Part shown: piece by piece, positions 1 through 3,886 of the stretch
How positions within the stretch are numbered: position 1 is the stretch's first letter
Layout of the letters: every line of letters starts with the position of its first letter
NCBI GenBank assembly: GCA_964244895.1
Contig: CAXTKV010000093.1
Span: forward strand, 1 to 19,024
Origin: an uncultured Deinococcales bacterium
Lineage (GTDB): Bacteria; Deinococcota; Deinococci; Deinococcales; JAAFIG01
Reading direction: 5' to 3'
DNA: 19,024 nt
The notes under the pieces: model-generated
The model's database searches: none
Seen by the model: only the letters and a program-made list of their open reading frames with translations
What the model was told of the DNA's origin: nothing
Translations under genes and position numbers: made by a program

Positions 1-866
1 GCCCCTCCGGTGCACTCGAGTACGACGTGGTGGGCGCGCTGGGCGTGCGGAAGGATCAGGGCGCGCGCGTGGAGCCACAGGAGCCGCCAGCGACCAGGAT
101 CGCGTGCTCGAAAGTGCCGGGGGACGGCTTCAAGCTCGAGTGCCTGGCTCGGGTCAGCCCCGCTATGGTCATGGCATCTCAGGCCTGGGGTCAGGACTTG
201 TCGCTGGTGCGCGCCGAGTGCGCCACCTGCCGTCTGGGTGGCCCGAGCGTGCCCGAAAGCCTGGAGAACGTGATCTCAATCGCGCGCGAGTACCGCAAGA
301 ACCTGTCCGATGAACCGATGCGGGTGACGGTCTACGAGTTCAAGAACGGCGCTGAACGCCCGCTCGAGGAGGCTGAACCCGAGAACGCCAAAACCATTCC
401 GGTCGCGCCGAAACCCTCCGTCTCGAGGCGAGACGCGCTGGGATCGTTGTTCACCAGCGCCAAACGAGGCGTTTCGTATGCGATTCCTGAAACGCCGCTG
501 CCCGGAATTGACGCCAGCATCCCGGTCAAACCCGTGCCGGACGAGTGGATCTGGCGCAAAAAGACGCTCAGGCCGCGCCCAGCCGACCAGGGCGCGCAGT
601 ACTGGCCCGCCCCGAGCGTCAATCAGGATTGCATTTTCTGTCCGGTCTGCCAGAACGTCTGCCCGACCTCTGCGATCACCCGCAACCTCGAGAGCGATGG
701 GTCGTTCAGGATCACGATGCAGATGGATGCCTGCACCGGCTGCAACGCTTGCGTCGTGTCCTGCCCGCCGGACGCGATGAAACTCGATCCGGAGACGGTC
801 TTTTCACGGCTTTCAGAGGTGGTGCTGCTGCGCGAAGGGCATCATCTGGAAGGCCCGCAACCCTGA
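1..866 (+). CDS. 4Fe-4S dicluster (polyferredoxin-like) protein, 5'-truncated by the window edge
   Basis: Two C-terminal ferredoxin motifs, CIFCPVCQNVCP and CTGCNACVVSCP. The frame is open from position 3 (PSGALEYD, the typical tail of another ferredoxin motif), so the true start lies upstream of the window. Confidence 0.85.
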   Translation, partial: PSGALEYDVVGALGVRKDQGARVEPQEPPATRIACSKVPGDGFKLECLARVSPAMVMASQAWGQDLSLVRAECATCRLGGPSVPESLENVISIAREYRKNLSDEPMRVTVYEFKNGAERPLEEAEPENAKTIPVAPKPSVSRRDALGSLFTSAKRGVSYAIPETPLPGIDASIPVKPVPDEWIWRKKTLRPRPADQGAQYWPAPSVNQDCIFCPVCQNVCPTSAITRNLESDGSFRITMQMDACTGCNACVVSCPPDAMKLDPETVFSRLSEVVLLREGHHLEGPQP

Positions 867-954
867 TACGAGCCTCAAGTCAGTGTTTTGTAAGAAACTT
901 CGCACTAGTCTCATTCTTGAAAAGCCCCATCGAGGGTTCATGCAGGAGGAAGAC

Positions 955-1089
955 TTGAAAAAACGTGTGCTGATGATCATCGGCTTGAGCCTACTGATTG
1001 GAAGTCTGGCATCCGCCGGTTCCGTTTCACTCCGCGTTGCACCGATTATCGCCCCCAAGTTGATCAGTTGTGGCGGAAACGGCTGCTGA
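955..1089 (+). CDS. Small secreted peptide precursor, 44 aa (MKKRVLMIIGLSLLIGSLASA-GSVSLRVAPIIAPKLISCGGNGC)
   Basis: AGGAGG SD at 944-949, 5 nt before TTG 955. Sec-type signal peptide: KKR n-region, hydrophobic core, A-S-A cleavage motif. An intrinsic terminator follows 17 nt after the stop. Confidence 0.75.
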   Translation: MKKRVLMIIGLSLLIGSLASAGSVSLRVAPIIAPKLISCGGNGC

Positions 1090-1106
1090 TTTTGGCGTCG
1101 TTCGCG

Positions 1107-1135
1107 GGGAACCGGGTTGACCCGGTTCCCTTTTT
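1107..1135 (+). terminator. Rho-independent terminator of the peptide gene
   Basis: Perfect 10-bp stem GGGAACCGGG / CCCGGTTCCC, TTGA loop, followed by TTTTT. Confidence 0.85.
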
Positions 1136-1182
1136 CCTTGATGGTTTCGTAAGGTTTGGTATGGCAGAATCGAGTGAGCATC

Positions 1183-2904
1183 ATGGACACCGACCCACAC
1201 GTCACGGAAGTGCAAAACCGTGAAGATCTGAACCCTCGAGAGCGGATGGATTCGCTGCTCGAGCGGTCCGAATCGATGTGGGCGACCGATCCGGCGCGTT
1301 CCCTCGAGATGGCCAACCAGGCCGTCGGTCTGGCCAGAAGCCTCGAAGATGATCTGGGGCTGGCCAAGGGGTTGCGTTTCGCGGGAAAGAACCACCACTC
1401 GCTTTCGAACCATTCCAGGGCGCTGACGAACCTGCTCGAATCCCTCGAACGCTTTCGGTTGCTCGAGAACCGATCCCAGCAGGTGGCGTGCCTGAACGAG
1501 ATCGGGCAGGTGCATTCCAGCGTCGGGGAGTACGAAGCAGCCATCGAGCATTTCGAACGGGCGCTTCGGTTGGCGCGTTCGATCAACTCTGAACGCGGCG
1601 AGATCGTCTCGATCTTCTCGATCGCAGAAATTTACAAGAAGCTCGGCAAGCACATCGAAGCCTTCACGTCCTACTCGCGCAGCTTAGAGCTTTCCGAAGG
1701 GCTGGGTTTTCAATCCGGTATCGCCTGGACGTTGCGGCACCTGGGTGAACTGCACGTGCTGTTCGGCGCTTCTTACGCCGCGCAGGGCGAGTCCGAGCGC
1801 TCCGAGTTCGAGTTCTCGCAGGGTCTGGGCCTGCTCGAACGGGCGCTCGAGGCGGGGCGCAGCCTGAGCGATCCGAAGTTGGTGGTCGAGACGCTGATTC
1901 ACACCTCGAGCGCTTACATGGATCGGGGTGCTTTCGCCTTGGCTCGAGAATCCAGCCAGCACGCCCTGAAAGTAGCCCACGAATCCGAAGTGCCGTCCCT
2001 CGAAGCGACCGCCCTGACGAGCGTCGGGCGCGTGTTGTTAAGGCTGGGCGAACTGAGCGAAGCCCTCGATTCCCTGCAGCGTTCGCTGGTGATCTACGAG
2101 CAGCTCGGCATGAAGCCCGAGATCAGCCACGCGCACCGCAAACTGGCGTTGATTCTCAAGGCCAGCGGTCAGCCCGCGCTGGCGCTCGAGCATTTCGAGC
2201 GCTTCTACGAACTCGACGCGAGCATCAAGAACGAGGCCTCCGAGCGGCGCGCAGAAGTGCTTTCCGTCAAGCTCGGACTGGAGAAATCGCGCCGCGAATC
2301 TGAACTCCTTCGCGAGCGCTCGGTGGAACTGACCGCCATGAACGAACGCCTGCAGGCGCAAGCCGTGATGCTCGACCGGCAAGCCCGCGAGGACGGTCTG
2401 ACGGGCCTTTCGAACCGTCGCCACCTCGAGGAATACGCCGCGAACGCCTTCAGGGCTGCGCGCGAGCGACGCCAGGCCTTGACGGCGGTGGTGGCGGACA
2501 TCGATTATTTCAAGTCCATCAACGACCGCTTTTCGCACGCCATCGGCGACGACGTGCTGCGGGTGGTGGCGGAAATCCTGCGCGCCAACTGCCGGGAATC
2601 CGACCTGGTGGCGCGCTACGGCGGCGAGGAATTCGTGCTGCTGCTCGACGGACTGGAGGCCAGGTCGGCCTTCACGCTCTGCGAGCGCATCCGGCGCGCC
2701 GTGCAGGATTACGACTGGTCGGTCTTTCACGCGGACCTGCGCGTCACGCTCAGCCTGGGGTTGAGCGACGACCTGAGCCTCGAGAACCACGAACGCCTGT
2801 TGTCCGGCGCGGACGAGCAGCTGTACGCGGCCAAACGCGCGGGACGCAACCGCGTCTACCCGAACCTCGCGCCCGAACGCCGCGCGCTACCCTTAATGCG
2901 TTAA
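1183..2904 (+). CDS. TPR-repeat-containing diguanylate cyclase (TPR-GGDEF)
   Basis: N-terminal TPR-like repeats (e.g. ACLNEIGQVHSSVGEYEAAIEHFERALRL; TALTSVGRVLLRLGELSEALDSLQRSL), a coiled-coil linker, then a GGDEF domain with DGLTGLSNRR, DIDYFKSINDRFSHAIGD, RESD I-site and GGEEF. No TM segment or signal peptide seen. Start uncertain (TTG 1156, GTG 1174 or ATG 1183). Confidence 0.92.
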   Translation: MDTDPHVTEVQNREDLNPRERMDSLLERSESMWATDPARSLEMANQAVGLARSLEDDLGLAKGLRFAGKNHHSLSNHSRALTNLLESLERFRLLENRSQQVACLNEIGQVHSSVGEYEAAIEHFERALRLARSINSERGEIVSIFSIAEIYKKLGKHIEAFTSYSRSLELSEGLGFQSGIAWTLRHLGELHVLFGASYAAQGESERSEFEFSQGLGLLERALEAGRSLSDPKLVVETLIHTSSAYMDRGAFALARESSQHALKVAHESEVPSLEATALTSVGRVLLRLGELSEALDSLQRSLVIYEQLGMKPEISHAHRKLALILKASGQPALALEHFERFYELDASIKNEASERRAEVLSVKLGLEKSRRESELLRERSVELTAMNERLQAQAVMLDRQAREDGLTGLSNRRHLEEYAANAFRAARERRQALTAVVADIDYFKSINDRFSHAIGDDVLRVVAEILRANCRESDLVARYGGEEFVLLLDGLEARSAFTLCERIRRAVQDYDWSVFHADLRVTLSLGLSDDLSLENHERLLSGADEQLYAAKRAGRNRVYPNLAPERRALPLMR

Positions 2905-2907
2905 AAG

Positions 2908-2955
2908 ACCGTCCAGGACGGTGTTCACTGCATTTTGAGAACACCGTCCTGGACG
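2908..2955. repeat. REP-like inverted-repeat element
   Basis: 17-bp IR CGTCCAGGACGGTGTTC (2910-2926) / GAACACCGTCCTGGACG (2939-2955), just after the DGC stop. Confidence 0.8.
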
Positions 2956-3006
2956 CGAGTTCCTGGCACCTGCCCACGATGAGCGGCGGCCTCACGGCGC
3001 AAGGCA

Positions 3007-3012
3007 TAGAAT
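3007..3012 (+). promoter_or_regulatory. -10 box of a putative leaderless murI transcript
   Basis: TAGAAT 7 nt upstream of ATG 3020; no SD. Confidence 0.6.
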
Positions 3013-3019
3013 TGCGGCG

Positions 3020-3886
3020 ATGACTGCGCCCTTTTTCGCCGATGCCCCGATTGGTGTGTTCGACTCCGGTGTGGGCGGCCTGACCGTCCTCAAGGCCCTG
3101 CGCGAGCGCCTGCCGGGCGAGGATTTCATTTACGTCGGCGATACCGCTCGGCTGCCATACGGTCGCAAACCGCCGGAGATGGTGCGGCAGTTCGCCAGAG
3201 AGATCTCGAACTTCCTGGTTTCCGAGGGCGCCAAAGCCGTCGTGATCGCCTGCAATACCGCCTCGAGCTGCGCGCTACCGCAACTGGAGTTCGAGCTGCC
3301 CGTTCCGGTCTGGGGCGTGATTGACCCCGGCGTCGAGGCGGCGACGGCGGCTGGGGCCGGTGGGCGCGTCGGGATTCTGGGCACGAAAGGCACGGTCGCG
3401 TCCGGCGCGTACCAGACGCGACTCGAGGCCAGGGGGCTGGCTGTCTGGGCCAGGGCCTGCCCGATGTTCGTTCCCGTCGTCGAGGAAGGGCTGGTCAATT
3501 CCGAGGAAGCCCGTTTGCTGGTGCGGCACTACCTGTCGGATCGGCCTCAACTTTCAGCCCTGATCCTGGGATGCACGCACTACCCGATCCTGAAACCGGT
3601 GATCGCGGACTTCCTCGGGCCGGAGGTGGCCCTGGTGGACAGCGCGGAAGTCGTCTCAGAGGTGGTCGCGCGCGATCTCGAGGCGCGCGAATTGGTCAAC
3701 CCGCGCGCCCACCCTGGCGAGGTCATCCATTACGTCACCGGCGATCCCAACGCCTACCAACATACGGCTCGCGTGATCGGCGGGGTCGAGGGAGAGATGC
3801 GATTGCTCGAGATCGAGCACCTGATGGCTCACGCGCAGGAACACAGGCAAAAACCAGCTGAGAAGGTCGCCCATGCCCGACGCTAA
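3020..3886 (+). CDS. murI: Glutamate racemase
   Basis: Motifs PIGVFDSGVGGLTV, DTARLPYG, VIACNTAS and LILGCTHYP (both catalytic Cys). Confidence 0.97.
   Translation: MTAPFFADAPIGVFDSGVGGLTVLKALRERLPGEDFIYVGDTARLPYGRKPPEMVRQFAREISNFLVSEGAKAVVIACNTASSCALPQLEFELPVPVWGVIDPGVEAATAAGAGGRVGILGTKGTVASGAYQTRLEARGLAVWARACPMFVPVVEEGLVNSEEARLLVRHYLSDRPQLSALILGCTHYPILKPVIADFLGPEVALVDSAEVVSEVVARDLEARELVNPRAHPGEVIHYVTGDPNAYQHTARVIGGVEGEMRLLEIEHLMAHAQEHRQKPAEKVAHARR

Follow-up and report, generated by a model that had tools for sequence, protein, structure and literature searches.

Intracellular receptors for exported peptides have been described in Bacillota, where they act through DNA binding or phosphatase control, according to three sources (PMC10075063, PMC9765709, and PMC13220807). 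The signature of the RRNPP systems, as given in PMC10075063, consists of a Sec/SPI-secreted propeptide of 10 to 100 amino acids (aa), a receptor of 250 to 500 aa with tetratricopeptide repeats (TPRs), and a distance of −60 to 400 bp between the two genes. Here, we analyze a 19,024-nucleotide (nt) stretch of DNA (contig CAXTKV010000093.1; hereafter the window) from an uncultured Deinococcales bacterium, in which a small gene for a predicted secreted peptide lies upstream of a gene for a soluble protein that joins a TPR solenoid to a GGDEF diguanylate cyclase domain. With a propeptide of 44 aa, a receptor containing TPRs, and a gap of 93 nt between the genes, the pair falls within these limits, whereas its receptor, at 573 aa, lies outside the 250 to 500-aa range. 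Its nearest described counterparts, NprR-NprX and Rap-Phr, share the layout of a small propeptide gene, here of predicted Sec type, adjoining the gene of a soluble TPR protein. We find that the pair is a real, conserved peptide-receptor cassette that is probably functional, and we assign a probability of roughly 0.55 to the reading that an exported, likely disulfide-looped intercellular peptide is re-imported, binds the TPR domain, and controls the synthesis of cyclic di-GMP (c-di-GMP).

The peptide gene and its conserved terminus

The peptide open reading frame (ORF) occupies positions 955 to 1089 of the plus strand, starts with TTG, and encodes 44 aa (MKKRVLMIIGLSLLIGSLASAGSVSLRVAPIIAPKLISCGGNGC). 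A Shine-Dalgarno sequence can be read 5 nt 5′ of the start (AGGAGG, 944 to 949, plus strand), and G-rich ribosome sites also precede the homologous peptide ORFs, being present in all complete copies. Starting instead at an in-frame ATG (940) would lengthen the peptide by five residues of acidic character; because the homologues start M-x-K-K/R, the start at 955 is favored. Residues 1 to 21 (955 to 1017) form a predicted Sec signal peptide, called by rules and by comparison with homologues, with three basic residues, a hydrophobic core (top 10-residue Kyte-Doolittle mean of 2.94), and the ending A19-S20-A21. The same pattern of basic N-region, hydrophobic core, and AxA predicts export for 14 of 14 aligned peptides. 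The predicted mature part after A21 comprises 23 residues, beginning with a linker (residues 22 to 38; 1018 to 1068) that the homologue alignment shows to be highly variable in length and sequence, and ending in a cysteine pair, C39-G-G-N-G-C44, which together with the stop codon spans 1069 to 1089. Both cysteines are invariant in the 14 aligned peptides and in a further copy truncated by a contig end (G207), and the C39-C44 pair is predicted to form a disulfide loop and is the likely core of the signal. The original prediction had placed the 44-aa ORF, its AGGAGG, the signal-peptide-like start up to A-S-A, the 23-aa mature part, and a terminator of its own correctly; what it left out was the conserved feature, the terminal cysteine pair.

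Sequence comparison indicates that purifying selection acts on the signal part of the peptide: over the first 23 codons, six congeners show 93 silent versus 5 replacement differences (pN/pS of 0.017, from pooled and non-independent pairs). In a contig from a 94%-identical strain (one contig, depth 5), the peptide frame is intact despite nine base changes, of which three are silent in the signal part and six fall in codons 24 to 29, yielding three conservative residue changes, with the last 15 codons unchanged. Apart from the TTG start codon, which would suit a chance frame or an untranslated relic, the evidence makes such an explanation very improbable, given the low pN/pS, the invariant cysteines and stop, the ribosome sites in complete copies, and the frame kept in the diverged strain. 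By selection and conservation, the ORF is thus shown to be a genuine protein-coding gene. Searching a library of 1.84 billion representatives returned eight matches, seven of them short proteins that all have the same cysteine-pair ending. Translated searching (tblastn) of this genome gave no second peptide copy, the peptides matched no significant Pfam or NCBIfam family, and a peptide search of the ESM Atlas returned only unnamed clusters at 0.83 to 0.84, the chance level.

Strict pairing of the peptide with one receptor clade

We took homologous receptors from 18 other genomes of the family. A tree of 111 distinct TPR regions, built with FastTree, places the 15 GGDEF receptors that have a peptide in one clade, and in all 15 a peptide gene lies directly upstream on the same strand, across four unrelated gene neighborhoods, and ends in C-x(3-4)-C-stop. 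The complete homologous peptides measure 49 to 60 aa and have the signal-peptide start. Outside the clade, 96 receptors were examined, of which 86 TPR-GGDEF or TPR-HD-GYP genes had at least 500 nt upstream; a cysteine-pair peptide was found beside none of these 86 and a divergent, cysteine-free secreted peptide beside five, leaving 81 without a neighboring peptide. To pass the peptide filter, an ORF needed a ribosome site along with a basic residue and a hydrophobic core. Two ORFs that passed it were removed by hand before counting, namely, one of 34 aa that accompanies the true peptide upstream in G212 and one of 39 aa downstream in L130 (also in L048 and L131), and a relaxed ORF scan of 40 receptors revealed no further convincing peptide. 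An absence of signal-peptide ORFs next to homologous genes had been named as an outcome that would speak against the pairing; the orthologues have them in 15 of 15 cases, and it is among TPR-GGDEF and TPR-HD-GYP genes at large that they are mostly missing. Within the host genome itself, a 39%-identical paralogue (C176:8638-10419) lacks a peptide.

Across 364 genomes, full-length peptide matches occur singly per genome and always beside the receptor. Four family genomes (74 to 94% complete) without the receptor clade are also without a full-length peptide, and neither was found in the other 345 Deinococcota genomes searched. In 36 of these 345, the peptide profile gave partial, weak matches (E > 0.004), and the four inspected contained no cysteine-pair peptide beside a TPR-GGDEF gene. 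A metagenome scan yielded six distant loci, none within the clade and none with a peptide, and a plasmid search yielded 42 records, all below 60% identity.

Co-variation of the mature peptide and the TPR domain

The peptide and the TPR domain co-vary as had been predicted. In genus g43, the signal part (87 to 94% nt identity) and the flanking genes (82 to 88%) are uniform, and the mature peptides fall into three groups, with identities of 79 to 94% within versus 44 to 56% between groups. The TPR region follows these groups, whereas the cyclase domain is grouped otherwise. Mantel tests over six congeners gave 0.64 (p = 0.018) for the mature peptide versus the TPR region, as compared to 0.02 versus the cyclase domain and 0.25 versus the downstream DNA, and 0.75 (p = 0.013) for the last nine peptide codons versus the first 120 TPR residues. 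Between allele groups, the TPR halves are 63 to 83% identical, against 81 to 97% for paralogues from the same genus that lack a peptide. The loop of G204 is unlike that of G193 and G202, and G204 matches these two at 72% in the first TPR half and at 98 to 100% in the cyclase; a peptide-less paralogue present in all three is 97 to 99% identical. For genus g2, co-variation was assessed by pairwise identities.

A sister TPR-HD-GYP module in g43 (L109 to L114) carries a divergent, cysteine-free secreted peptide of 39 to 40 aa in five of six loci, the sixth being cut by a contig end. Its signal peptide and the spacer between mature peptide and TPR are 82 to 94% alike whatever the group. Over five genomes, the first TPR part (65 to 69% between groups, 79 to 84% within) co-varies with the mature peptide (56 to 65% between, 75 to 85% within). 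Taken together, the genomic comparisons support well the assignment of the two genes as a peptide-TPR signaling pair.

Allele diversity of this kind would also be expected if the peptide were a bacteriocin-like or interference factor and the TPR cyclase its sensor or immunity partner, telling kin from non-kin, as toxin-immunity pairs typically show diversity in both partners. One of 14 peptides did match an NCBIfam "ocin" model, nonsignificantly (E = 0.26). The exported parts, however, extend from basic ones to strongly acidic, proline-rich ones, unlike membrane-active bacteriocins, no conserved transporter or modification gene was found beside the pair, and no significant Pfam or NCBIfam family was matched, which makes a competition pair improbable.

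The receptor and its predicted contact with the peptide

The receptor gene spans positions 1183 to 2904 of the plus strand and starts with ATG, a TTG at 1156 being a possible alternative. Its TPR solenoid (1183 to 2217; eight helix pairs, residues about 18 to 345), the candidate peptide sensor, was delimited by Pfam (TPR_12, E = 5e-30), by fold matches, and by an AlphaFold2 model from a 14-row alignment, which shows a 16-helix solenoid ending in a long helix (predicted local distance difference test score, pLDDT, of 92.1; predicted template modeling score of 0.84). This helix links the TPRs to the cyclase (2218 to 2388; residues 331 to 369 in the model and up to 402 judging from the sequence) and is likely a coiled coil. 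The GGDEF domain runs to the stop codon (2389 to 2904; PF00990 at residues 403 to 557, E = 3.7e-39; TIGR00254, E = 3e-46) and includes a GGEEF motif (2620 to 2634) and a RESD inhibitory site of the RxxD type (2593 to 2604). GGEEF is kept in 14 of 14 clade members examined. The metal- and guanine-binding motif D..FK..ND..GH..GD was matched in this receptor and eight others, with five missed by the pattern. Hence, the cyclase motif is intact here, and cyclase activity is predicted from the motifs. No transmembrane segment was detected in the receptor (top 19-residue hydropathy of 0.93), and Pfam and NCBIfam profile searches matched no helix-turn-helix (HTH) family. The soluble TPR-GGEEF architecture originally proposed, with both of its motifs, is therefore present at this locus, while its RxxD site is common to just 7 of the 14 clade members. 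Complete clade receptors are about 549 to 567 aa long. In the alignment column of E106, a predicted groove position in the third helix pair, glutamate is invariant in 14 of 14 receptors; this residue is a candidate for contacting the lysine that most peptides have before their loop.

The closest folds to the TPR model are LGN (Z = 31.0), Pins (30.1), and APPBP2 (28.8), followed by RapI (25.9; root mean square deviation of 5.9 over 330 aligned), phage Rap (24.9), RapH (24.7), MalT III (24.6), and NprR (22.8). Foldseek likewise favors LGN, and a TPR profile search placed LGN/Pins on top (E = 1e-37), with NprR as the top natural bacterial match (E = 4e-15). The suggested structural comparison with Rap and NprR thus bears out a match to the TPR fold, and LGN/Pins match it better. 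A complex prediction for the TPR region with peptide residues 15 to 44 scored 0.55 versus 0.00 for the top control, with a contact agreement between runs of at least 58% and a partner pLDDT of at least 49. Of 157 solved pairs, 116 attain the pass mark, as do 2 of 215 mismatched ones; at or below 0.60, however, lie only 18 of the solved pairs and both mismatches, so that the model weakly supports binding of the peptide to the TPR domain.

Small secreted ORFs beside other TPR regulators

After strict filtering, 7 of 12 small secreted ORFs of the genome have a TPR or BTAD gene no more than 600 nt away, as compared to 97 of 2769 background genes (3.5%; p = 4e-8). As small secreted ORFs are enriched beside such genes, the locus appears to belong to a family of peptide-TPR modules whose outputs differ. 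A wider reading, which we hold tentatively and at slightly less than even odds, is that uncultured Deinococcales combine Sec-exported peptides with cytoplasmic TPR sensors in a family whose outputs can be exchanged (diguanylate cyclase, HD-GYP phosphodiesterase, or BTAD/SARP regulator), with the present member being a disulfide-looped, strain-specific pheromone that would switch c-di-GMP synthesis directly.

Several further small ORFs were noted, mostly in this genome. Secreted peptides of 40 to 52 aa, mostly glycine-rich, lie beside TPR or TPR-BTAD genes at C5:3615-3755, C6:13575-13721, C67:11568-11690, C36:19802-19951, C310:2490-2639, C293:2425-2547, and C50:24599-24757; those on C67 and C50 likewise have a cysteine pair, and the C50 neighbor matched no Pfam family. 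On C23 (about 25350 to 25700; L182), three tiny ORFs of 10, 13, and about 45 aa without signal peptides precede a TPR-HD-GYP gene (25852 to 28344). Two of them have strong GGGAGG sites, all three end in a glycine-rich G-W-A-type motif, and they are possible cytoplasmic or non-Sec peptide partners. On C18 (about 36500 to 36850), a 999-aa MalT-like BTAD regulator is followed by two tandem 13-aa ORFs, with a basic start and a W-A/L-G end, and a 48-aa secreted peptide. Secreted peptides at C134:2723-2854 and, in G096, next to a TPR-GGDEF gene (L009) likewise contain a W-A-G motif. Small lipoprotein-like ORFs with tryptophan-repeat tails were found at C135:10939-11067, C223:2037-2171, C112:8220-8348, and L169, those at C135, C223, and L169 directly 5′ of collagen-like or tail-fibre-like secreted proteins.

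Promoter region, terminator, and flanking sequences

A conserved TGTAAG motif lies in the promoter region, 66 nt 5′ of the peptide start (889 to 894, plus strand). It recurs 45 to 67 nt 5′ of the peptide start in 14 of 14 clade loci for which upstream DNA is available, often in a tandemly repeated 11-nt unit, whereas elsewhere in this genome 16 of 2053 upstream regions contain it. Between the peptide and receptor genes, a hairpin (1106 to 1131; −25.9 kcal/mol, z = −3.4, with 1 of 200 shuffles equally stable) and a T run together resemble an intrinsic terminator (1106 to 1140, plus strand), and several homologues show hairpins in this gap when inspected by eye. A CGTAAG variant of the promoter-region motif 5′ of the receptor start (1148 to 1153, plus strand), found also 5′ of the G207 receptor, is a possible second promoter element. 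An Rfam scan of positions 800 to 3100 gave no RNA family. Upstream of the pair lies a gene for a 4Fe-4S ferredoxin-like protein, and downstream of it one of the glutamate racemase family; neither neighbor is conserved with the pair. An imperfect palindrome 3′ of the cyclase stop (2907 to 2958) looks like a dispersed repeat of the repetitive extragenic palindromic (REP) type, with similar ones after genes on C23, C28, C133, and C176, and a stand-alone HD-GYP-like ORF, recognized by its motif by eye, lies 10 kb downstream on the same contig (13021 to 13713).

Discussion

We propose a mechanism in which the peptide gene, whose coding nature selection and conservation establish, is translated and its product would be exported and cut after Ala21. 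A pathway of the DsbA-VKOR type would link C39 to C44 once the peptide has left the cytoplasm, and, by analogy with the maturation of Phr and NprX, the variable linker may be trimmed to leave a tail of about 8 to 12 residues around the loop. This tail would be imported via an Opp/Dpp-type transporter and, as the complex model weakly predicts, bind the TPR solenoid, with a specificity that, as the co-variation suggests, would reside mostly in the N-terminal repeats. Binding may then move the coiled coil and thereby switch the paired GGEEF domains, and the allele groups would represent strain-specific signal types. We lean slightly toward the peptide activating the cyclase at high density, although the data leave the direction unfixed. 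The genome encodes 22 family-5 (Opp-type) peptide-binding proteins and two DsbA-like matches, both at contig ends. Of the 18 relatives, 13 have VKOR and 3 have DsbB.

The same steps could also serve a single cell, as a self-monitoring probe that is exported to the periplasm, oxidized, and re-imported, with the cyclase sensing secretion, redox conditions in the envelope, or the capacity for import. The host group consists of diderm bacteria, where Sec export reaches the periplasm only, and the invariant feature of the peptide is a redox-active cysteine pair, both of which suit such a probe. Pump-probe roles other than density sensing are, moreover, discussed for Bacillus (PMC7055314). A private probe would, however, offer no obvious reason for divergent peptide and TPR allele groups among close relatives, and we consider this explanation unlikely.

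Several observations weigh against re-import and TPR binding of an intercellular signal. Searches of this assembly, which is 91% complete, turned up no DsbB and no VKOR, and a disulfide would be reduced after import into the cytoplasm. The receptor clade has a support of SH 92 in a FastTree tree, and 14 of these loci went into the peptide and receptor profiles, so that their top matches are circular and only the negatives are independent. The co-variation rests on six congeners that are non-independent as kin, and since peptide and TPR are adjacent, recombination of a single block would also produce it. This objection is partly answered by the sister module, in which a conserved signal peptide and spacer separate the mature peptide from the TPR. 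G203 and G205 share the loop CGSDC, yet their first TPR halves are 62% identical, and the first half of G203 is 85 to 87% like that of G193 and G202 despite a different loop. The passing complex prediction may reflect a generic TPR-peptide likeness, which we suspect because the closest folds are the eukaryotic LGN/Pins that bind many extended peptides, and because TPR-peptide complexes are common among solved structures. Finally, the predicted groove positions, which we take from the TPR literature to be 2, 5, 6, 9, 12, and 13 of the repeat (one repeat being one residue off register), were no more variable than the outer helices (p = 0.87 and 0.65).

This lack of excess variation in the groove would be expected of a peptide that acts outside the cell, by binding metal with its two cysteines, as a matrix component, or as the ligand of a membrane receptor, and that is only co-regulated and co-inherited with the cyclase. 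The terminator between the two genes fits such a linkage, as does the fact that 81 of 86 other TPR-GGDEF/HD-GYP genes work without a neighboring peptide, and CxxxC pairs can bind copper and other metals. Yet the pair was kept across four changes of neighborhood and down to about 20 to 30% TPR identity, TPR divergence is higher where a peptide adjoins, and, across the genome, small secreted ORFs lie next to TPR regulators more often than background genes do. We therefore regard mere linkage as unlikely too and retain the reading of a re-imported peptide that binds the TPR domain.

If that reading is true, direct tuning of a diguanylate cyclase by a peptide would join cell-to-cell signaling with the biofilm and motility switch in one protein, and a diderm phylum would have peptide quorum sensing that acts directly on a second-messenger enzyme, possibly using a disulfide-looped signal. 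It would further point to ligands for part of the large number of TPR-GGDEF and TPR-HD-GYP proteins that are orphans. Such systems would be missed by the 250 to 500-aa receptor filter of RRNPP_detector, and the natural allele series makes the system testable without culturing. In open-access main texts, we found no description of peptide-TPR-GGDEF pairs or of peptide signaling in Deinococcota, and the supplementary tables of RRNPP_detector could hold such clusters. The terms "cyclase," "c-di-GMP," and "Deinococc" are all absent from the main text of PMC10075063, as are "cyclase" and "Deinococc" from PMC9765709 and "Deinococc" from the 2026 review PMC13220807.

Compared to the RRNPP systems, the locus differs in its output, a C-terminal GGDEF domain versus an N-terminal HTH or phosphatase bundle. 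In RRNPP(A) systems, the output is either a DNA-binding domain of the HTH kind or a helical bundle as in Rap. The locus also differs in its diderm Deinococcota host, in having the peptide gene upstream, and in the invariant terminal cysteine pair. Regarding lineage, Rap and NprR match the TPR domain (Z = 22.8 to 25.9; E = 4e-15), LGN/Pins match it better, and MalT III matches it equally. The RRNPP-like peptide control of c-di-GMP that had been proposed is partly supported: the pairing and the co-variation speak for a peptide-TPR signaling pair, the complex prediction weakly backs the binding step, and re-import and control of c-di-GMP are putative. The likeness to RRNPP is one of analogy: the system appears to work like RRNPP, and we do not file it as a member since its receptor exceeds the length range, has an enzyme as its output, and is closest to TPRs of the LGN type. 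LGN/GPSM2 and Pins (PDB 4wng, 4a1s, 3sf4, and 5a7d) share the eight-repeat solenoid and were solved with extended peptides in the groove, whereas they are eukaryotic spindle-orientation adaptors without an exported peptide or enzyme output; the match indicates the type of repeat, not the function. The ordinary TPR-GGDEF and TPR-HD-GYP one-component proteins of Deinococcota have the same domain order, with TPRs that are more conserved between close relatives.

In the agr system (AgrD/AgrB/AgrC), a hypervariable cassette over the peptide and the sensor end leads to allele groups. The agr signal is a short cysteine-containing ring (PMC13220807), as may be the case here. By eye, no AgrB-like, shared processing, or kinase gene was seen beside the pair, whose flanks differ between genera. 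In agr, AgrB removes a C-terminal tail from the peptide and closes the ring as a thiolactone, which a membrane kinase then senses, whereas here the last residue is the second cysteine itself, Sec-type export is predicted, and the partner is cytoplasmic.

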